In this document: positions 15,937 to 39,315 of the stretch, one piece after another
Layout of the letters: the number at the start of each line of letters is the position of its first letter
Numbering within the stretch: the stretch's first letter is position 1
Assembly (NCBI GenBank): GCA_016186765.1
Contig: JACPLD010000005.1
Coordinates: 79,785 to 121,228, forward strand
Length of the DNA stretch: 41,444 bases
Origin: Candidatus Kaiserbacteria bacterium
Lineage (GTDB): Bacteria; Patescibacteriota; Minisyncoccia; Phycocordibacterales; UBA2100
Direction: 5' to 3'
Made by a program: the position numbers and the translations under genes
Notes under the pieces: generated by a model
What the model was told of the DNA's origin: nothing
The model's input: the letters and a program-made list of their open reading frames with translations, nothing else
The model's database searches: none

Positions 15937-16863
15937 CTACGTATGCAAGTAGCGTCGGACTGCCAAGTACGAAGAGAGGGCACCGAGGCCGATGCCAGAG
16001 CCCATCACGACGAGAAAGATAAGTGGGAACGAGCCGATGAAGTAGCTAAAGACATTGAATGAGCCAAAAAAGCGCTCGCTTCCCGGCCCCAGGGAGAGCG
16101 TGACGGGATAGAGAAGAAGAAGCACCACAAGGCTGCTCACGAGTCCATACAGAATGCCCGTTATCATAAAGGGGCCCCGCACGTACCAGCGCGAGGCGCC
16201 GACGATATTCATGACACCGATCTCGTCGCGAGCGGTATAGATCGCGAGGCGCACGGTGTTGAAGGCGATAAGAACGGTCGCAAGACCAAGAACGAACGAT
16301 ATGGCAATGCCGAGCCGGCGGGATGTTTCGATAATGTTCGTAAGACGATCGATCGCCGTCTTGTTCTGATAGAAATTTACCTTGTCGATCGCGCTTGAGA
16401 GCTCGCTGCCTTCTTGCATAGCTTCGAGCGAGCGTGCGATCGATTCATACTGACTCGTTTCCTTTGCGCGTATCTCGAGCGAAGCCCCCAAGGGATTTTC
16501 GCCGAGCTCGTCGAGAGCTTGGAGGGTGAGCTGATCGTTCTTGTGCCGCTCGCGGAATATCGCTAGCGCCTCCTCGCGACTCACGTAGGTGACGATCGCA
16601 ACTTCGGGGAGCGATTCGAGCGATCGTTGCACTTCGCGAATCTGCTCTTCGCTCGCGGTCGTGGTGAAATAGACGGTTACGTCAACTTTCTCGGTGAGTT
16701 GCTGTAGCGTCGAACTAAGTGCCGCACCCAAAATGAGAAGCCCGGCAACGACAAAGAGTGTGATGGTCATGATAAGAACTGCTGCGAGCGAGACGAACCC
16801 GTTACGCACAAATCCGATGAGGCCATATCGCGCGACCCGCTTCATGTTGACCCATGTGCTCAT
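15937..16863 (-). CDS. ftsX: Cell-division permease FtsX
   Basis: Four-TM layout, FNTVRLAIYTARDEIGVMNIVGA, downstream of ftsE. Confidence 0.92.
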   Translation of the reverse strand: MSTWVNMKRVARYGLIGFVRNGFVSLAAVLIMTITLFVVAGLLILGAALSSTLQQLTEKVDVTVYFTTTASEEQIREVQRSLESLPEVAIVTYVSREEALAIFRERHKNDQLTLQALDELGENPLGASLEIRAKETSQYESIARSLEAMQEGSELSSAIDKVNFYQNKTAIDRLTNIIETSRRLGIAISFVLGLATVLIAFNTVRLAIYTARDEIGVMNIVGASRWYVRGPFMITGILYGLVSSLVVLLLLYPVTLSLGPGSERFFGSFNVFSYFIGSFPLIFLVVMGSGIGLGALSSYLAVRRYLHT

Positions 16864-16867
16864 AGGA

Positions 16868-16972
16868 ACTAGGTATTAGGTGATAGGTATTAGGTGTTAG
16901 ATAAAATCAGAGAATTCCAAGCCTCCCGCTTTGTAGTAACTATAACCTAGAACCTTACACCTAGGACCTATC
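16868..16972. repeat. Inverted pair of heptamer tandem arrays in the ftsE-ftsX spacer
   Basis: 5 x NNTAGGT-like (16868-16902) and 5 x ACCTANN-like (16938-16972). Confidence 0.85.
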
Positions 16973-17651
16973 ATAGAACGTATTTGCCCTGCTTGTCGTC
17001 ACGCACGATACGTCCTTGATCCATCACGACAACACGTCGCCCCACTGAATCGACGACACTCTTGTTATGCGTTGCGAGAAAAACAGTCGTGCCGAGATCA
17101 TTGATCTTCTTCAGGATTTCCACCACGTCGTGCGTATTAATGGGATCGAGGTTGCCTGTCGGCTCGTCGGCAATCAAGACGTCGGGCTGGTTGACGATAG
17201 CACGCGCGATCGCGACCCGCTGCTGCTCGCCACCGGAAAGCTGCGAGGGGAAGCTCCACATCTTCTCGGGAAGCCCCACGAGCTCTAAGACATGCGGCAC
17301 ATCCGCAGCGATATCGTCTTCTGATTTGCCGGCAACCTCGAGCGCGAAAGCAATGTTTTCATACACGGTTTTCGTCGGGAGGAGGCGAAAATCCTGAAAA
17401 ATAGTCCCGATGTTGCGCCGCAGATCGCGCAACTCCTTGCCGCTCATCAACTTGATCTCGCGGGAGCCGAAGTACACGGCGCCCTCCGTGGGCTGTACTT
17501 CGGCGAAGAGCATTTTGAGGAGCGTCGATTTCCCAGCGCCCGAATGACCCACAATGGATACAAACTCCCCCGGATCTATCCCGAGCGTGATGTCTTGGAC
17601 GGCTGCCTGGCCACCGCTGTAGATCTTCGTTACTTTATCGTAGTAAATCAT
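16971..17651 (-). CDS. ftsE: Cell-division ATP-binding protein FtsE
   Basis: [42 protein letters not shown]; start MIYYDKV. Confidence 0.93.
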   Translation of the reverse strand: MIYYDKVTKIYSGGQAAVQDITLGIDPGEFVSIVGHSGAGKSTLLKMLFAEVQPTEGAVYFGSREIKLMSGKELRDLRRNIGTIFQDFRLLPTKTVYENIAFALEVAGKSEDDIAADVPHVLELVGLPEKMWSFPSQLSGGEQQRVAIARAIVNQPDVLIADEPTGNLDPINTHDVVEILKKINDLGTTVFLATHNKSVVDSVGRRVVVMDQGRIVRDDKQGKYVL

Positions 17652-17713
17652 ACAGAAAAGTATCGTGTATGGAGTATCGTGTATGGAGTATAAAAACCGG
17701 AACCTTCGGACAT
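17648..17713 (-). CDS. Putative 21-codon uORF coupled to ftsE
   Basis: TATAAT 7 nt upstream of ATG; MSEGSGFYTPYTILHTRYFSV; TGA overlaps ftsE ATG (ATGA). Confidence 0.35.
   Translation of the reverse strand: MSEGSGFYTPYTILHTRYFSV
17659..17693. repeat. Heptamer array (AGTATCG/TGTATGG alternating)
   Basis: agtatcg tgtatgg agtatcg tgtatgg agtataa. Confidence 0.8.
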
Positions 17714-21457: not shown

Positions 21458-21651
21458 TTCCTTCTTTCCCTACTACGCTCGCCTGCGGCGAGCTTCGAAG
21501 GGTCCTGCATAGCTTTATGCGACGCAGGACATCCCGACTATACGGTCGGTCGCGGGATTGAACCGCAGTCGTGTCCCGACATATGCCAGGACTCGCGGAC
21601 TCGCCTTGCGGCTTTACCGCCGATTGGGACTCACACCCAACCCCGAAGGAA
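21458..21651 (-). ncRNA. FMN (RFN) riboswitch with an internal insertion
   Basis: CTTCGGGG-TTGGGTGTGAGTCCCAA-TCGGCGGT...GTCCGCGA...GCGGTTCAATCCCGC-GACCGAC-CGTATAGTCG-GGATG; P1 TTCCTTC/GAAGGAA; upstream of rib operon. Confidence 0.9.
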
Positions 21652-21680
21652 CAGGGGAAGTGTACCACACTTTATTCGTG

Positions 21681-21753
21681 AGCCACCTCGGAGAATCGAA
21701 CTCCGGACCCCGTCTTTACGAAAGACGTGCTCTACCGACTGAGCTAAGGTGGC
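21681..21753 (-). tRNA. tRNA-Thr(CGT)
   Basis: GCCACCT...AGGTGGC-T; CGTCT-TTCGTAA-AGACG; TTCGATT. Confidence 0.95.
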
Positions 21754-21763
21754 AATCGTGCTC

Positions 21764-21792
21764 ATCCTACGCGATTTTTCAGGCGTTTTCAA
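21764..21792 (-). promoter_or_regulatory. Sigma70 promoter of tRNA-Thr(CGT)
   Basis: TTGAAA-N17-TAGGAT ending 10 nt before the tRNA. Confidence 0.6.
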
Positions 21793-21795
21793 TTG

Positions 21796-21867
21796 AGCCG
21801 GAGGCGAGAATCGAACTCGCGGCCTACCCCTTACCATGGGGTTGTTCTACCACTGAACTACTCCGGC
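21796..21867 (-). tRNA. tRNA-Thr(GGT)
   Basis: GCCGGAG...CTCCGGC-T; ACCCC-ATGGTAA-GGGGT; TTCGATT. Confidence 0.93.
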
Positions 21868-23238: not shown

Positions 23239-23316
23239 TGGCGGGAGCGACGGGATTTGAACCCGCAACCCCTTCCGTGACAAGGAAGTGCTCTATCCAG
23301 GTTGAGCTACGCCCCC
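23239..23316 (-). tRNA. tRNA-Asp(GTC), CCA encoded
   Basis: GGGGGCG...CGCTCCC-G-CCA; CTTCC-TTGTCAC-GGAAG; TTCAAAT. Confidence 0.95.
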
Positions 23317-23367
23317 AACCGAAGCAGAATATATCAAAACGTTGCTTGATGCTATACTCCGGAACAA

Positions 23368-23441
23368 GTCGGGGTAGCTCAGTTGGTTAGAGCGAGCGTT
23401 TCATAAGCGCTAGGTCGTGGGATCGTAGCCCACCCCCGACA
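23368..23441 (+). tRNA. tRNA(CAT), probably elongator Met (Ile2 not excluded)
   Basis: GTCGGGG/CCCCGAC-A; AGCGT-TTCATAA-GCGCT; atypical T-loop ATCGTAG. Confidence 0.85.
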
Positions 23442-23462
23442 CCGGCAGGCTATAATTCATGT

Positions 23463-23651
23463 ATGTCCGCACGATTCTGGGGAACAATTCTTGCCTTCAA
23501 CTCCGTTCTGTGGTTCGTCGCACTCGGCTTCCTTGCCTACGGCTTCGGCATGCTCATCACCTCACTCGATTGGCGGCTCTTCCTCCTCGCGCTTGCAACC
23601 TTCGTCGCCGTCTCACTCACAGAAATTGTGTTGACAGCTCTCGCGCACTAA
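23463..23651 (+). CDS. Small two-TM membrane protein
   Basis: 62 aa, almost fully hydrophobic; TATAAT just upstream. Confidence 0.65.
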   Translation: MSARFWGTILAFNSVLWFVALGFLAYGFGMLITSLDWRLFLLALATFVAVSLTEIVLTALAH

Positions 23652-23689
23652 AAATTGCGACGAATTCTCCCTTGTAGTACAGTACCCGT

Positions 23690-23761
<72 letters not shown>

Positions 23762-25948: not shown

Positions 25949-28334
<2,386 letters not shown>

Positions 28335-28795: not shown

Positions 28796-29452
28796 TTACT
28801 GTATTTCCTCCACCCATCGGTAGAGATTTGCAGAGATCGTGAACGATCGCGTTTGGAACGAGCCCGTCGTCCACTCTATCGCCACGGAAATGCGCACCTC
28901 ATCCTCCCCGCCCGGCAGGAATTCTGCACGAACCGTTCGCGTGAAGCGCGTGTTCTCCCAGCCTTCTCCCGCGCCGCAATCGTTTGTCGGCATCGCGCAT
29001 GCTGGCCGATAGCCGTACAGCCTACCGTCCCATTGAAGCGGCGGACAGCCCTCAAGCGGGCAGAGCGCCGTCGAATCGTCCCTCGTATCAACAATAAACG
29101 GCGAGCCATCGGTTGCGGGGATGCCGTTGAGCAAATCCACAGAATCGCCGAACACGGTGACGAGAATGTTGTTGTCGCGCCCGTGGCGTATTGCCTCTAT
29201 AGCCTCTTGCGCAAGATGGAACGCCGTAATCTGGTCTCGCGCGTAGTAGGCGGTCGCGAGGCTCTTCGCCGTTAGCGCCATTGGCGACACGATTGCAACG
29301 GAAAGAATCGATACCGCGACCAGCGTCTCGACAAGCGTAAAACCGGCATGAAGGTTATAGGTTTTAGGTTTAAGGTTATAGGGAAATGCAAACCAAGAAT
29401 TCGGTCGCTTCCCTGAAACCTGACACCCAAAACCTGATACCTGATCCTTCAT
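28796..29452 (-). CDS. PilV-like minor pilin with a long repeat-derived leader
   Basis: 38-aa leader then G|FTLVETLVAV; AFHLAQEAIE. Confidence 0.82.
   Translation of the reverse strand: MKDQVSGFGCQVSGKRPNSWFAFPYNLKPKTYNLHAGFTLVETLVAVSILSVAIVSPMALTAKSLATAYYARDQITAFHLAQEAIEAIRHGRDNNILVTVFGDSVDLLNGIPATDGSPFIVDTRDDSTALCPLEGCPPLQWDGRLYGYRPACAMPTNDCGAGEGWENTRFTRTVRAEFLPGGEDEVRISVAIEWTTGSFQTRSFTISANLYRWVEEIQ
29349..29445. repeat. Inverted pair of heptamer arrays inside the prepilin leader
   Basis: tgaaggt tataggt tttaggt ttaaggt tataggg (29349-29383); ccctgaa acctgac acccaaa acctgat acctgat (29411-29445). Confidence 0.85.
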
Positions 29453-30054
29453 ATGTCAAGTATCCGCTGCACGGCGGTTGCCTGTATCGAGAAAGAGGTG
29501 GTCGTCTTCACGTTGGTGCCGCCGGCTGTGCCGCTCACCGCAATGACGACCTTCGGTTGGGTGGTATCTCCGCGCGTTGTACCGACGACATAAAACGTGA
29601 AGTCCTCGATTGCAACGTCACCCGCCGTGACAGCATAGTAGTTTCCTCCGTTGTTCTCCGACTTGCAGAGGCGTCCCTGTCCGCAGAACGTGCCGTTCGT
29701 ATCATAGACGTATACCCATCGCTCCAGCGGGTCGCAGTCCCCCTCGCAGAAAGGTTTGAAAGCGAACTTCGTACTCCCTAACTCGCACGACTGCGTCGCG
29801 GTAATGTCGCCCGAACCGCAGTGATACTCGGAACCCATCCGAATTGAGCGCACCATTCCATCGAGAGCAATGCTAAAGTTATTCATGACAGACTGCAGCG
29901 CGTGCGCTTTACGGTTTGCGCCCACGAGCGCAAGAAGTGCCGCTGTCGAGACGAGCATAACGACCGCAAACAAGCCGACAGCGACAATCATCTCGACCAA
30001 CGTAAATCCGCGCTCATTCCGAACTCTTGCCTTTTGCCTTTTGCCTTTTGCCAT
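29449..30054 (-). CDS. PilW-like minor pilin
   Basis: MAKGKRQKARVRNERG|FTLVEMIVAV; ATG 1 nt after the upstream TGA. Confidence 0.82.
   Translation of the reverse strand: MAKGKRQKARVRNERGFTLVEMIVAVGLFAVVMLVSTAALLALVGANRKAHALQSVMNNFSIALDGMVRSIRMGSEYHCGSGDITATQSCELGSTKFAFKPFCEGDCDPLERWVYVYDTNGTFCGQGRLCKSENNGGNYYAVTAGDVAIEDFTFYVVGTTRGDTTQPKVVIAVSGTAGGTNVKTTTSFSIQATAVQRILDI
30024..30051. repeat. (CTTTTGC)x3 plus one variant unit in the prepilin leader
   Basis: ctcttgc cttttgc cttttgc cttttgc directly after the start codon. Confidence 0.85.
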
Positions 30055-32005: not shown

Positions 32006-32055
32006 GCGCTCATTATAGCAGACCAAGCGCCCTTGAAGCGCCCGTGTGGATAGTC

Positions 32056-33264
32056 CTAGAAACCCGACGCGATGTTGTAGATGGGGAGAAGCACAGAGGC
32101 AAGGAGCATCGCGACGCCGACGGCAAGCGTCACGATCATAAAGGGCTCGATCAGACCCACGAGAGTGTCCACCGCATTGTTAACCTCGCGGCGATAGAAC
32201 CGCGCCATCGTCTCAAGCACGTGCGCCATGTTACCGGTCTCTTCCCCGATCTTGACCATAGCGACGACGATACCGGGAATTTCCGGATGCTTGCGAAACG
32301 CTTCAGAGACAGGAAGACCTCCCTTTACGTCGGCTGCGGCGGCTACCAAGACTTTTTCATAGACAGCGTCCCCTACGACAGAGCCGGTTATCTCAAGGCC
32401 GCGAAGAATCTGCACGCCGCTTTTGAGCATCGTCGAGAGGTTATCGGCGACACGCGAAAGAAAGAGTTTCTTGTAGATCTCTCCGATCGCGGGAATTTGC
32501 ATGCGCGCGCGGCTGAACATCTCGCGCCCAACGGGCGTGCGGTAAAAGCGGTAGAGGAAGACGCCCGCGATCAAAAGCAGGATGACGATGAGGAGAATGT
32601 AGCGTGTGAGAAAATTGCTGATGCCGATCACAATCTTCGTGTAGATGGGAATATTCTGCCCGATCTCTTCGAGGAGCGTCGCGAGGTTCGGAATCACGAG
32701 TGTCATCATCAATGCCATAACGACTACGAATGTCGTTGTGATGAATGCAGGATAGATGAGCGCGTTGCGCGCTTTTTGTGTGATCTCGTAGTTGCGATCG
32801 AGGTAATCGGCAAGAAACGAGAAAGTTTCATCAAGTTTTCCAGCCTCCTCGCCCGCGCGAACCATGTTGACGTAAAACGGCGAGAACACTTCGGGATGCC
32901 GGGAGAGTGCTGCCGATATCAAAGAACCACTTTGGATGTCGTTTGCGACCGCGGTAAGCTTCTCGGCAAGCTTCGGCGTTCGTGCCTCGGAGGCGAGGAG
33001 CCGAAAGGCGTGAAGAGCCGATACCTGCGCTTCGAAGAGCGTCGTTATTTGGCGGCTCACCATCACGATGTCCGCGTTGGTGATGCGATCGAAGAGAGAG
33101 ATGCGTGTCCACGCTGTTGTCTTTTCCTGTTGCGGCGCTATCGAGGATACGACCAGCCCTCTTCTCTGGAGGGCAGTGATCGCGACATCAATATTGACCG
33201 CGTCGATCGTGCCTTGCCGCTCGGCGCCCTCCTGGTCGACCGCACGGTATGTAAATAAAGCCAT
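32056..33264 (-). CDS. pilC: Type IV pilus platform protein PilC/GspF
   Basis: Two GspF repeats: MVRAGEEAGKL...ALIYP; MVKIGEETG...IEPFMIV. Confidence 0.93.
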   Translation of the reverse strand: MALFTYRAVDQEGAERQGTIDAVNIDVAITALQRRGLVVSSIAPQQEKTTAWTRISLFDRITNADIVMVSRQITTLFEAQVSALHAFRLLASEARTPKLAEKLTAVANDIQSGSLISAALSRHPEVFSPFYVNMVRAGEEAGKLDETFSFLADYLDRNYEITQKARNALIYPAFITTTFVVVMALMMTLVIPNLATLLEEIGQNIPIYTKIVIGISNFLTRYILLIVILLLIAGVFLYRFYRTPVGREMFSRARMQIPAIGEIYKKLFLSRVADNLSTMLKSGVQILRGLEITGSVVGDAVYEKVLVAAAADVKGGLPVSEAFRKHPEIPGIVVAMVKIGEETGNMAHVLETMARFYRREVNNAVDTLVGLIEPFMIVTLAVGVAMLLASVLLPIYNIASGF

Positions 33265-33267
33265 AGA

Positions 33268-33351
33268 TTAAAGAACAGAGAACAGAGAACAGAGAACAGT
33301 CGATGAATTGGCATTTCTCTGTTTTCTGTTTTCTGTTTTCTGTTTTCTCAT
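33268..33351 (-). CDS. Putative 27-codon bridging mini-ORF between pilT and pilC
   Basis: ATG overlaps pilT TGA; MRKQKTENRKQRNANSSTVLCSLFSVL; TAA 3 nt before pilC ATG. Confidence 0.3.
   Translation of the reverse strand: MRKQKTENRKQRNANSSTVLCSLFSVL
33272..33348. repeat. Inverted pair of heptamer arrays in the pilT-pilC spacer
   Basis: (AGAACAG)x4 at 33272-33299 and (GTTTTCT)x4 at 33321-33348. Confidence 0.9.
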
Positions 33352-34415
33352 AGCAATTTCTGCAGCACGTTCGGGTTGAGTGAGAACTGGTAGGCGCTCT
33401 CGACCGTGATCTCTCCTCGCGCCACCAATTCCGCAAGCGAGCGATTCATGTCTATCATGCCCTCGCTTGAGCCGGTTTCGATAATAGTAGGAAGCTCATG
33501 GGTACGACGCTCGCGGACGAGATTCGCGACCGCCTTGTTGTTGATGAGGAGTTCGTACGCCGGGATAAGACCGCCAGAGACACGCGGGACGAGACGCTGG
33601 GAGAAAATCCCTGCGAGCGAGGCTGCAAGCTGCAGGCGGATCTGGTCCTGCTGCGAGGCAGGAAACGTGTCGATGATTCGATCGACGGTTTGCGCGGCAT
33701 CATTCGTATGCATCGTCGAGAAGACAAGGTGGCCGGTTTCCGCGGCAGTCACGGCAGCAGCCATCGTTTCCGGCCCGCGCATCTCTCCCACCAAGAGCAC
33801 GTCGATGTCTTGCCTGAAGGCGGCTTGGAGTGCCGTCGCAAAATCCTTTGTGTCGATGCGGACTTCCCGCTGATCGATGAGTGACTGCTTCGGCTCGAAC
33901 ACGTACTCAATCGGATCTTCTATCGTTACGATATGCTCCATTCGCTCTGTGTTAATGAGCTCGATGAGAGAGGCGAGCGTCGTCGTCTTTCCCTGCCCCA
34001 CGGGCCCCACGACAAGGAAAAATCCCTGCGTCTTCCTGGCAAAGGTCGTGAGAACATCCGGAAGATTCAACTCCTGCACGGAGCGAATCGTTTTCGGGAT
34101 GAGGCGGAGCGCGATCGAGATCGAACCGCGTTGAAAGAAGACGTTCCCGCGGAACCGATTCCGATCCTCGCTCTCGTAGGCAAAATCGAGCTCTTTTTCC
34201 GCAAGAAATCGCCTCTCCTGCTCGGGCGTGACGAGTGTCTTCAAAAAGCCTAGTGTATCCTCGGGCAAAAGTACCGGTTCTTTGAGCATCGGTGTGAGCA
34301 CTCCCGACGTGCGGATCGTGGGATGCGCACCCGCCGAGAAGTGCAGATCACTCCCGCCCTCGTGCGAAAGCACGTTGATGTATTTTTTCAAAGTCGCACC
34401 ATACTCGATCGCCAT
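33348..34415 (-). CDS. pilT: Type IV pilus retraction ATPase PilT
   Basis: SDLH, GPVGQGKTTT, TIEDPIE, AFRQDIDVLLVGEMR, AETGHLVFSTMHT; start MAIEYG. Confidence 0.93.
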   Translation of the reverse strand: MAIEYGATLKKYINVLSHEGGSDLHFSAGAHPTIRTSGVLTPMLKEPVLLPEDTLGFLKTLVTPEQERRFLAEKELDFAYESEDRNRFRGNVFFQRGSISIALRLIPKTIRSVQELNLPDVLTTFARKTQGFFLVVGPVGQGKTTTLASLIELINTERMEHIVTIEDPIEYVFEPKQSLIDQREVRIDTKDFATALQAAFRQDIDVLLVGEMRGPETMAAAVTAAETGHLVFSTMHTNDAAQTVDRIIDTFPASQQDQIRLQLAASLAGIFSQRLVPRVSGGLIPAYELLINNKAVANLVRERRTHELPTIIETGSSEGMIDMNRSLAELVARGEITVESAYQFSLNPNVLQKLL

Positions 34416-34443: not shown

Positions 34444-34839
34444 TCATTTTTTCCTTTTTGCGATCTCCTCCGCGACTGCTTGAACAACTTCGGAGGGGAT
34501 CATACTTGCCTTCACGATGTAGCGATGCACACCAAGCGATTCTGCTTTCGACCTCTCTGCCGGGTCGCTCATGTTCGTAAGCGCGATGAGGGTAGCTCCG
34601 GGAGCCACGTGGCTCTGTGAGAGCTCATCGAGAAACGAGAAGCCGTCGCGCTCGGGCATCGTGAGATCAAAGACGATAGCATCAGGCGCAAAGCCGGCTT
34701 TAAGTGCGGCAAGTGCTTCAGCGACAGAAAGACACGTCTGTACGGTATAGCCAGCAGAGGTAAACTTCATGCCGTACATATCCGCCAAAAACTTGTCGTC
34801 ATCCACAAAGAGCACATTTCCTTTTGTCGCCTCGTTCAT
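34444..34839 (-). CDS. Single-domain response regulator (CheY-like)
   Basis: VLFVDDD, VFDLTMP, ALTN, IVK all intact; no output domain. Confidence 0.9.
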   Translation of the reverse strand: MNEATKGNVLFVDDDKFLADMYGMKFTSAGYTVQTCLSVAEALAALKAGFAPDAIVFDLTMPERDGFSFLDELSQSHVAPGATLIALTNMSDPAERSKAESLGVHRYIVKASMIPSEVVQAVAEEIAKRKK

Positions 34840-38166: not shown

Positions 38167-39315
38167 TTAGGTACTCTTCAATTTACGAAGTATGAGGCCT
38201 GCCGAAACTGAAAATCCCGGACCTATCTCTCGCAGCACGTCCGCAAGAAATGCCGGTGCCTCCGTCCGGGCAAAAGGGTCCGCGATGACAACGTCGGCGC
38301 TCAAGGATGACTTCGCCTCCCCTGAAAGGCCGGGGAGCGATGCACCGCCGCCAGTCAAAACGACGCGCGACACATTCTTGTTGTATCGCTGCCCGTAGCT
38401 CAATAGTACCCGATTCACCTCCGAAAAGAGACGCGAGAGTGTTGATAACAGCGCAGATTTGATGCGGTCGTTCTCGTCGGCCGAATAGGCGGGAGAATCC
38501 TCCAAGCCGCGCTCGCGCTTCACGCGCTCCGCTTTCTCAAAGTCCCAGTTGAGCGAGCGCGCTAAGGTCTCCGACATCTGCTGTCCTCCCATTGAGACGA
38601 GATGCGTGAGCCGCACGATGCCGCGCTCAACGATGTACATTTTGGTCGTCGAAGCGCCGATGTCAACGACTAAGACTGGCGCGATGCCACGCGAAAGTGA
38701 GGAGCGTATTGCACCGAAGATCTCGATCTCGTAAAACTCCACATGAATGCCCGCCGTCGAGGCGACCGTCTGGAAACTATTCACGACGTCGTTGTGAATA
38801 GCAACGAGGAGCACCTCTACACCCCTAGGCTTTTGCGCCGGGGCCTGCACACGGTCGAAGGCGCTCTTCTCTTCCTCGTCTTCCGGAATAACGAACCAGT
38901 CGAGCGTCACCTCCGAGACGGGAACTGGAATGTATTTGCGCGCTTCGATCGGGACCATGCGCTTCAAGGTTCCCTCGTCTACCTTCGGGAACTCGAGCAC
39001 GGAGATGAGGCTTGAGGAAAATGGGATAGAAAGGCCGGCCGAACGAGCCGTTACGTTCGCCTCCTTCATCAAATCCATAAGTGCTTCAGCTGTCTTTTCA
39101 GGCGTAAGCTTCACCGCCTTGCCGACCGGTTGTCCGCCGTAGGGGCCGAGCGCGATTTCGCCGTAGGTTTCGAGGATCGCCGCACCATGCGAGGCACGCA
39201 TCTGCACGACTTTCACCGAGCTCGTGCCGATGTCGATGCCTAAGAAACTTCCTTCTGCGCCGCCGCCGAATGCGGAAGAAATTTTTTCCGTGATACTGCC
39301 TAGCGAGAACGCCAT
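38167..39315 (-). CDS. pilM: Type IV pilus assembly protein PilM
   Basis: GIDIGTSSVK, VDIGASTT, VLTGGGASLPG actin-like motifs. Confidence 0.93.
   Translation of the reverse strand: MAFSLGSITEKISSAFGGGAEGSFLGIDIGTSSVKVVQMRASHGAAILETYGEIALGPYGGQPVGKAVKLTPEKTAEALMDLMKEANVTARSAGLSIPFSSSLISVLEFPKVDEGTLKRMVPIEARKYIPVPVSEVTLDWFVIPEDEEEKSAFDRVQAPAQKPRGVEVLLVAIHNDVVNSFQTVASTAGIHVEFYEIEIFGAIRSSLSRGIAPVLVVDIGASTTKMYIVERGIVRLTHLVSMGGQQMSETLARSLNWDFEKAERVKRERGLEDSPAYSADENDRIKSALLSTLSRLFSEVNRVLLSYGQRYNKNVSRVVLTGGGASLPGLSGEAKSSLSADVVIADPFARTEAPAFLADVLREIGPGFSVSAGLILRKLKST

Follow-up and report, generated by a model that had tools for sequence, protein, structure and literature searches.

The type IV pilus genes pilT and pilC of a Candidatus Kaiserbacteria bacterium from groundwater are separated by a spacer in which a 27-codon open reading frame (the mini-ORF) runs through two facing arrays of heptamers, and we consider it probable that this mini-ORF relays ribosomes from pilT to pilC across the repeat hairpin. 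The locus lies in a 41,444-nucleotide (nt) stretch of GenBank assembly GCA_016186765.1 (contig JACPLD010000005.1, positions 79,785 to 121,228), hereafter the window, the numbering of which is used throughout. As part of the same reading, and just as probably, the window spacer would be a single member of a class of repeat hairpins inserted at the starts of cistrons in Kaiserbacteria and in Paceibacteria related to them. The observations on which we build are the anatomy of the spacer, its hairpin, the lack of a Shine-Dalgarno (SD) motif and conservation of a reading frame, but not of a sequence, over unrelated inserts.

The pilT-like gene likely starts at ATG 34415, with TACAAT-N7 upstream, and stops at TGA 33350-33348, while the start of the platform protein gene pilC was placed by homology at ATG 33264-33262 (Table 1). 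The mini-ORF ATG (33351-33349) shares bases with the pilT stop codon as ATGA, and its TAA (33270-33268) is followed by TCT and then by the pilC ATG, which lies in the same frame. On the mRNA strand the 83-nt spacer reads gctATGA-(GAAAACA)x4.4-gagaaatgccaattcatcga-(CTGTTCT)x4-ttaatctATG, and no SD-like sequence precedes pilC in the window (ctgttctttaatctATG). A preliminary description of this DNA, made from its letters and open reading frames, had called an ATG overlapping the pilT TGA that opens 27 codons, a stop 3 nt ahead of the pilC ATG, two heptamer arrays with about one mismatch per unit between them and an SD-less pilC. All of these descriptive statements are correct: Tandem Repeats Finder (TRF) returned both arrays with 100% matches, the mismatch is one A·C in each unit of the mRNA strand, and 44 of 45 long spacers at this junction, the window counted in, lack an SD-like 4-mer ahead of pilC, with one such motif in the remaining spacer. 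The idea that UGA might serve as a sense codon was dropped, as PilT alignments stop at the TGA and both pilB and the response-regulator gene also end in TGA.

The two arms form inverted repeats of 33 nt that are 82% complementary and separated by 19 nt. The predicted fold of the mRNA strand reaches -32.5 kcal/mol compared to -16.3±3.0 kcal/mol for 200 dinucleotide shuffles, none of which folded as well (z -5.5), and at its base GCUAU at the pilT stop pairs with AUGGC at the pilC start. The opposite strand folds more strongly still (-42.6) because the A·C mismatches turn into G·U pairs. An intrinsic terminator was rejected, given that no terminator-like site was found at 33264-33351, there is no U tract, the stem is AU-rich and the centre spans 18-19 nt. 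The same element holds no sigma-70 promoter-like site and no Rfam 15 match at gathering score, the Rfam matches of the window being tRNAs and a flavin mononucleotide (FMN) riboswitch elsewhere. An out-of-frame ATG at 33314, in the spacer centre, opens a 58-codon ORF that runs into pilC.

Translation initiation in Candidate Phyla Radiation bacteria, which are uncultivated, is to our knowledge almost unexplored. Within the window an SD-like 4-mer precedes 4 of 33 curated genes, and a TANNNT box lies 5-9 nt before the ATG at 12 of 33, which is the geometry of leaderless transcripts; leaderless-type starts are seen at the major pilin (TATAAT-N6-ATG 32005), at pilT (the start described above) and at pilM. 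These counts suggest that leaderless mRNAs may be widespread in this Kaiserbacteria lineage, and together with the related loci they indicate genomes that are probably SD-poor and dependent on leaderless starts and stop-start coupling. For an internal cistron behind 83 nt of structured RNA, the sequence would seem to offer no obvious initiation route except hand-over from upstream translation. The efficiency of such coupling has been reviewed as highest at distances of -4 to +3 nt, with a 3-10-fold loss by about +40 nt, and the notion that ribosomes can be "delivered" by a short ORF has been put forward, for which mycobacterial interspersed repetitive units (MIRUs) are the natural case and bicistronic design the engineered one (PMC12548453).

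In the relay that we propose, first genes of this lineage would be leaderless in appearance and internal genes would normally start 1-6 nt past the preceding stop, such that an 83-nt structured insert would break stop-start coupling and the mini-ORF would restore it. A ribosome ending pilT at UGA would restart on the overlapping AUG (AUGA), translate 27 codons and melt the hairpin on the way, terminate at the UAA 3 nt ahead of the pilC AUG and restart on pilC, with the mini-ORF peptide as a by-product. From the comparisons described below we infer that the mini-ORF is translated and that pilC depends on it.

Genome and metagenome collections supplied PilC relatives, all of them from Patescibacteria, the closest of which (91% identity) are labelled Candidatus Kaiserbacteria. 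After removal of duplicates this gave 132 Kaiserbacteria-like junctions, window included, with pilT directly upstream of pilC in all 131 related loci used (numbered with the prefix L below). The pilT-pilC gap is bimodal, measuring 1-33 nt in 86 junctions, where 3 nt is the commonest value (30 loci) and 2, 6 and 1 nt come next, and 51-235 nt in 45. Even genomes with 90-91% identical PilC differ at this position: a homologous 83-nt insert is common to the window and L001, the insert of L002 is unrelated to it, and L079 and L081 lack an insert. The usual insert consists of about four heptamers, a centre of 20-40 nt, about four roughly complementary heptamers and then the pilC ATG, built from units such as CCGGTAG/AGCTACA, TTTACAG/CTGTCAA, NNCGTAG/CTACGNN, CAGGTGT/ACCTGGA and GCAGAAG/CTGCCTT. 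The 45 long spacers fall into 28 sequence families that have only this architecture in common. Cut-and-paste insertion remained without support, as the longest string shared by both junctions of an insert is 4.27 nt compared to 4.13 nt in mismatched loci. In the one remaining junction, on a Minisyncoccia contig (L078), a 1963-nt insertion parts pilT from pilC.

The preliminary description had proposed a check on whether the frame stays open between stop and start in orthologous spacers that carry other repeats, and it does. Counting ORFs that end between -6 and +14 around the pilC ATG, with dinucleotide shuffles as the control, 38 of the 45 long spacers hold some ATG-initiated ORF of at least 13 codons that ends at the pilC start, compared to 4.3±1.9 in shuffled spacers (maximum 11 in 500 shuffles). 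The whole spacer is bridged in 21 of the 45, where an ORF ending at the pilC start begins with an ATG at most 12 nt from the pilT stop (1.7±1.2 in shuffled spacers). Because an ORF ending at the pilC start is present in 24 of the 28 sequence families, shared descent does not explain the frame. The spacing of the last ORF stop is also specific, falling at -3 in 14 long spacers, as an ATGA overlap in 12 and at -1 in 5; apart from the ATGA overlap, these are the commonest spacings of uninterrupted junctions. At the other end, ATGA occurs at the pilT stop in 18 of 45 long junctions but in only 2 of 86 short ones (p 3e-8), and it requires the last leucine to be encoded by CTA or TTA, the rarer codons. 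Together, the 38 spacers, the 24 families and the ATGA association support the earlier suggestion that the mini-ORF may act as a ribosome relay.

We also scored each long spacer as a chain of first AUGs. Whether such a chain reaches pilC proved a poor discriminator in itself (37 of 45, compared to 27.8 for shuffled sequences) and was rejected as a score; only the final stop-start distance discriminates. The chain arrives with a final gap of at most 6 nt in 31 of 45 loci, whereas shuffled chains do so in about 10%, an estimate from the 27.8 of 45 that succeed and the 16% of these that end so close. About ten spacers are not bridgeable because their 5' units hold TAG in all three frames, and in nearly all of these TAG-bearing spacers the hairpin centre supplies the earliest ATG downstream of the pilT stop, with a frame of 15-20 codons that again terminates at the pilC start.

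Chance could account for an open frame if the repeats merely lack stop codons, and stop-free heptamers do leave three frames open across the arrays. We regard this as scarcely credible, since it is rejected by the shuffles, by the family-level count, by the ATGA association and by frame and antisense controls: among 12 ATGA loci the spacer is bridged by the frame of the ATG in 10 cases and never by the +2 frame, and a mirrored antisense control yields, of 26, 6 ORFs that end at the site and 1 that bridges. A functional micropeptide is scarcely more credible and can be considered very improbable. Its frame is open and conserved and the N-termini are basic (MRKQK..., MSEQR...); however, the peptide tracks the local heptamer and is wholly different between families, its length varies from 13 to 60 codons, and the same type of sequence occurs in prepilin leaders, which are normally cleaved off. 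It is the frame and not the peptide sequence that is kept between spacers, in agreement with the preliminary description, which had called the peptide probably irrelevant.

The spacers of the window, L001 and L024 are homologous and allow the relay and the hairpin to be set against each other. The centre of L024 is 4 nt shorter and its ORF stop has shifted from -3 to an ATGA overlap; therefore, the relay is kept despite the 4-nt loss. In each of the three loci the 5' array has been homogenised for a unit of its own, AGAAAAC, AGAGAAC or AGAGACC in all four copies, and we infer that arrays arise and are homogenised through 7-nt slippage. With the frame retained while arm complementarity weakens across these loci, the ORF may compensate for an inserted repeat and the hairpin would not be a designed gate.

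It is nonetheless conceivable, if improbable, that the hairpin is the functional part, either as an RNase III or stability determinant separating the pilT and pilC messages, or as a translation-sensitive attenuator, or as a device holding the pilT stop beside the pilC start for direct ribosome transfer; in each of these variants, to which we give one joint low probability, the mini-ORF would be incidental or secondary. Arm complementarity is kept across differing units, as matched arms fold to -25.1 kcal/mol but mismatched arms to -11.4 kcal/mol, so pairing is locus-specific, and in 59% of cases the true partner arm is among the best 3 of 37. Stems reach about 28 bp, the stem base brings together the pilT-stop region and the pilC AUG, and the first array of a pair starts 0-10 nt past the stop codon with the second ending 0-30 nt ahead of the start. 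This function, however, does not predict a conserved frame, a 5' ATGA or a stop at most 3 nt from the pilC ATG, and the window family has kept its ORF while its arms diverge, with the L024 fold at only -19.8. Neither a terminator-like U tract nor an Rfam family accompanies the element. Moreover, the opposite strand folds more stably than the mRNA strand in 28 of 37 array pairs (p 0.003; window and L001-L080), with 83 G·U pairs in sense compared to 121 in antisense and a 3' arm that is G-poor (13%) and A-enriched. This advantage of the antisense strand speaks against a strongly selected mRNA hairpin but is not decisive. To us the array resembles a tolerated repeat, softened in the message, more closely than it does a tuned RNA switch, though its locus-specific arm pairing could reflect either selection or a templating mechanism, and the hairpin may itself be useful, for example by blocking uncoupled pilC initiation, or may simply be tolerated.

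Paired arrays of this kind are not confined to the pilT-pilC junction. In 940 kb comprising the window and the first 80 loci, counting arrays of at least 4 copies and at least 85% identity, we found 86 arrays with a period of 7 and between 0 and 5 for each of the remaining periods in the range 4 to 15. Downstream of pilC, they occur in pilin genes in a different configuration, in which an ATG at or beside the upstream stop opens a frame that continues through both arrays into the prepilin and encodes a leader of about 35 residues ending RG|FTL(V/I)E. Arrays occur in 38 prepilin N-termini, at least 13 of which have no other in-frame ATG, GTG or TTG; in those genes the arrays must be translated because the sole possible start lies upstream of them. 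Of 25 pilin modules in related loci, about 20 are in frame. Translation of the arrays there is probably harmless, because cleavage normally removes prepilin leaders. At pilC, unlike in these leaders, a stop immediately ahead of the ATG closes the same type of module.

The window holds two such prepilin modules. The sister module with two complementary arrays starts at ATG 29452, which overlaps the TGA of the upstream pilin and is the only in-frame start of that prepilin; the arrays lie in frame and make up most of the 37-residue leader MKDQVSGFGCQVSGKRPNSWFAFPYNLKPKTYNLHAG|FTLVE, ending HAG|FTLVE. The single GGCAAAA array encodes the basic 16-residue leader MAKGKRQKARVRNERG|FTLVE, and the L001 orthologue of this prepilin also bears a complementary second array. 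A related arrangement occurs before ftsE, where a 21-codon upstream ORF (uORF) reads through an array with a 14-nt period and ends in a TGA that overlaps the ftsE ATG at 17651 (ATGA). Judged by its promoter-like geometry, this uORF is probably leaderless and ribosome-delivering in appearance. In the ftsE-ftsX spacer, the ATG at 16974 overlaps the ftsE TGA in the manner of the mini-ORF.

Table 1. Features of the window discussed in the text (1-based window coordinates).
Feature	Coordinates	Strand	Remarks
pilT-like ATPase gene	33348..34415	-	Pfam T2SSE 1.4e-42; translation ends ...KLL, then stop
27-codon mini-ORF, MRKQKTENRKQRNANSSTVLCSLFSVL, then stop	33268..33351	-	Frame conserved across orthologous spacers
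5' arm, (GAAAACA) x4.4 on the mRNA strand	33318..33348	-	TRF 100% matches, score 62
Non-repeat centre, predicted loop region	33300..33317	-	Between both arrays
3' arm, (CTGTTCT) x4.0 on the mRNA strand	33272..33299	-	TRF 100% matches; inverted repeat; fold
pilC platform protein gene	32056..33264	-	Pfam T2SSF 3e-53, two T2SSF stretches
Single-array prepilin module, (GGCAAAA)x3.7	30007..30054	-	ATG 30054, 1 nt past upstream TGA
Prepilin sister module, two complementary heptamer arrays (29412-29444, 29352-29382)	29347..29452	-	N_methyl at residues 35-55
Paired arrays upstream of ligA	28258..28334	-	Degenerate AAGGNNN facing AACCTAA x3.9
21-codon uORF, TATAAT-N7-ATG 17713	17648..17713	-	Reads through array 17659-17691
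ftsE-ftsX spacer module	16864..16974	-	Degenerate 5' array ~16940-16970 facing 3' array 16870-16900

Several points weigh against the relay and the insert class as we describe them. Seven of the 45 long spacers hold no ORF that ends at the pilC start, and the roughly ten ORFs that start only in the loop would presumably need scanning or de novo initiation. Two modules in the window itself deviate: the ligA spacer has no ATG-initiated ORF between 28258 and 28334 despite its arrays, and the 25-codon ORF of the ftsE-ftsX spacer ends at 16897, 31 nt short of the ftsX ATG at 16863. A search for RNA or ribosome-profiling runs containing the sequence returned none, every sequence compared is a metagenome assembly, the pilC starts were placed by homology as opposed to experiment, and the shuffles do not keep the repeat structure. 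Part of the openness of the frame comes free, because stop-free heptamers leave all frames open, an objection that the frame, antisense and end-position controls answer only partly.

A further alternative treats the arrays as a contingency switch, in which slippage by plus or minus one unit shifts the frame (7 mod 3 = 1), and the relay then misses pilC or a prepilin leader falls out of frame. Pilus genes would in this manner be toggled like the Neisseria opa genes by their CTCTT repeats, for which the placement of repeats in the leader sets a precedent (PMC3745409). Such a switch is compatible with the relay and would give the arrays a purpose, although we consider it rather unlikely. Consistent with it, the unit is not a multiple of 3 and sits in translated 5' regions of surface-structure genes, loci differ in array copy number, from 3 to 14, and L091 appears to be one unit off the canonical arrangement. 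The concerted evolution of units in the window, L001 and L024, which proceeds at constant length, would imply repeated 7-nt events and thus shifted states if it works by gain and loss of units. Against it, none of 68 same-array comparisons with identical 30-nt flanks differs in length, although many of these may be duplicate deposits. An exact-anchor scan of metagenome contigs found no array variants of plus or minus 7 or 14 nt. No indels were present at the window arrays in the contigs of the source runs, which break at the arrays, and the source samples were available as contigs and not as reads. In these data copy-number variation would scarcely have been visible. Arrays of about four units are short, implying low slippage rates, the pilin modules are mostly in frame whereas opa-like loci are mostly off, and the inverted pairing of the arrays is left unexplained. 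A variant that does address the pairing, in which the paired arrays form a lineage-specific, slippage-driven module that reversibly disconnects the pilC relay or prepilin leaders while the complementary arm templates or stabilises the array, seems to us an outside chance of similar size.

Additional features of the window and its relatives were noted along the way. Among the fetched loci only L001 shares the heptamer units of the window. In the source runs (X1-X4), assembler word depth over the arrays (33272-33348) is several-fold to about 18x that of the flanks, with 13-18x recorded for the array words in the source metagenome, and contigs break there; therefore, some heptamer units recur elsewhere in the source groundwater communities. 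Heptamer-free inserts also occur at the pilT-pilC junction (L027, L041, L044, L098 and L155; L026/L031; L085/L145), for example with the ends TATGAGCG.AGCGAAT ... CTAACATG and internal palindromes, and most of these also bear an ATGA-started ORF closing TAAcATG on pilC. A stand-alone response-regulator receiver gene (34444-34839, reverse strand) lies between pilB and pilT with an ATGA overlap at each end, and a short ORF beginning at the ATG on its stop (34447) extends across the pilT start. On the forward strand, a 404-codon open frame (32044-33258) runs antisense to nearly all of pilC and is probably a functionless mirror ORF. Further TANNNT-type starts occur on the reverse strand at 39315, 22542 and 24508, and a TAACCT located 7 nt before the ligA ATG could act as the -10 box of a leaderless transcript. 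A repeat with a 21-nt period at 1457-1562 (5 copies, 70% matches) lies inside an ORF on the reverse strand (196-1971) and possibly encodes a 7-residue protein repeat. The FMN riboswitch (21517-21654, reverse strand) is situated upstream of riboflavin-type genes and beside a tRNA gene cluster (21681-21867, 23242-23761).

These data indicate that selection seems to rebuild the relay frame repeatedly whenever a repeat hairpin lands between coupled genes. They thereby offer natural comparative evidence for the idea that an upstream ORF delivers the ribosome, which has so far come mainly from mycobacteria and synthetic constructs. Found above all in operons for type IV pili, the translated hairpins of heptamer arrays would represent an undescribed class, with no publication on such elements in Patescibacteria found in the literature searched, and their own role could be one of tuning, of switching or of selfish spread. 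For annotation, both the spacer ORFs and the repeat-encoded prepilin leaders of about 35 residues could be mis-called by standard gene finders. Should the slippage reading be true, the arrays would constitute a stochastic switch over pilus composition in tiny episymbiotic bacteria, and phase variation through translational coupling would be a mode not described before.

Among known systems, MIRUs (Supply et al. 1997) resemble the window spacer in being short, repetitive, co-oriented intercistronic insertions in operons with an ORF coupled to the flanking stop and start. PMC12548453 describes them as intercistronic repeats with a small coupled ORF, including the -4 ATGA spacing, and gives as the presumed benefit of this ORF that expression of the genes downstream is hardly affected by the insert. 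Both host lineages appear to lean heavily on leaderless and coupled translation. The element described here is a single module of about 80-110 nt with two inverted, hairpin-forming arrays of about four heptamers; its unit sequence varies by locus, its modules also occur in frame in prepilin leaders, and no target-site duplication was detected around the inserts. MIRUs, by comparison, are units of 40-100 bp in few conserved sequence families and are often tandem.

Ribosome-delivering uORFs of mycobacteria (Shell et al. 2015) and synthetic bicistronic designs, as cited in PMC12548453, have their mechanism in common with the proposed relay. Those uORFs start at a 5' end or from their own ribosome-binding site, whereas the mini-ORF would be started by coupling to pilT, amounting to a two-step relay inside an operon; the mycobacterial type is matched more closely by the ftsE uORF of the window (17713-17648).

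Heptamer repeats have precedents of their own, among them the comparable short tandemly repeated repetitive (STRR) heptamers of cyanobacteria. Direct repeats of TAACTGA in marine Beggiatoaceae and cyanobacteria sit just upstream of start codons (PMC4679880), and heptanucleotide long simple-sequence repeats in general were treated by Mrazek 2007, as cited in PMC4679880. As here, 2-6 tandem 7-nt units lie a few nt before starts, at the position of a ribosome-binding site and in SD-poor contexts, and a period of 7 is favoured. There, however, one heptamer dominates genome-wide, its forward orientation holds stop codons and it is almost never inverted, with one indirect repeat in 170 sets (PMC4679880), whereas the units described here are diverse, usually in complementary pairs and often translated. 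The CTCTT repeats of Neisseria opa sit in the leader-peptide coding region (PMC3745409), and the prepilin arrays resemble them as tandem units that are not a multiple of 3 within the coding region of the cleaved N-terminal leader of a surface-structure gene. Copy-number switching has been demonstrated for opa, while none was observed in our 68 comparisons, and the arrays described here are shorter and paired. Collectively, the element differs from each of these systems in its paired, inverted and sequence-variable heptamer arrays, in its coupling at both ends and in its in-frame use within prepilins.

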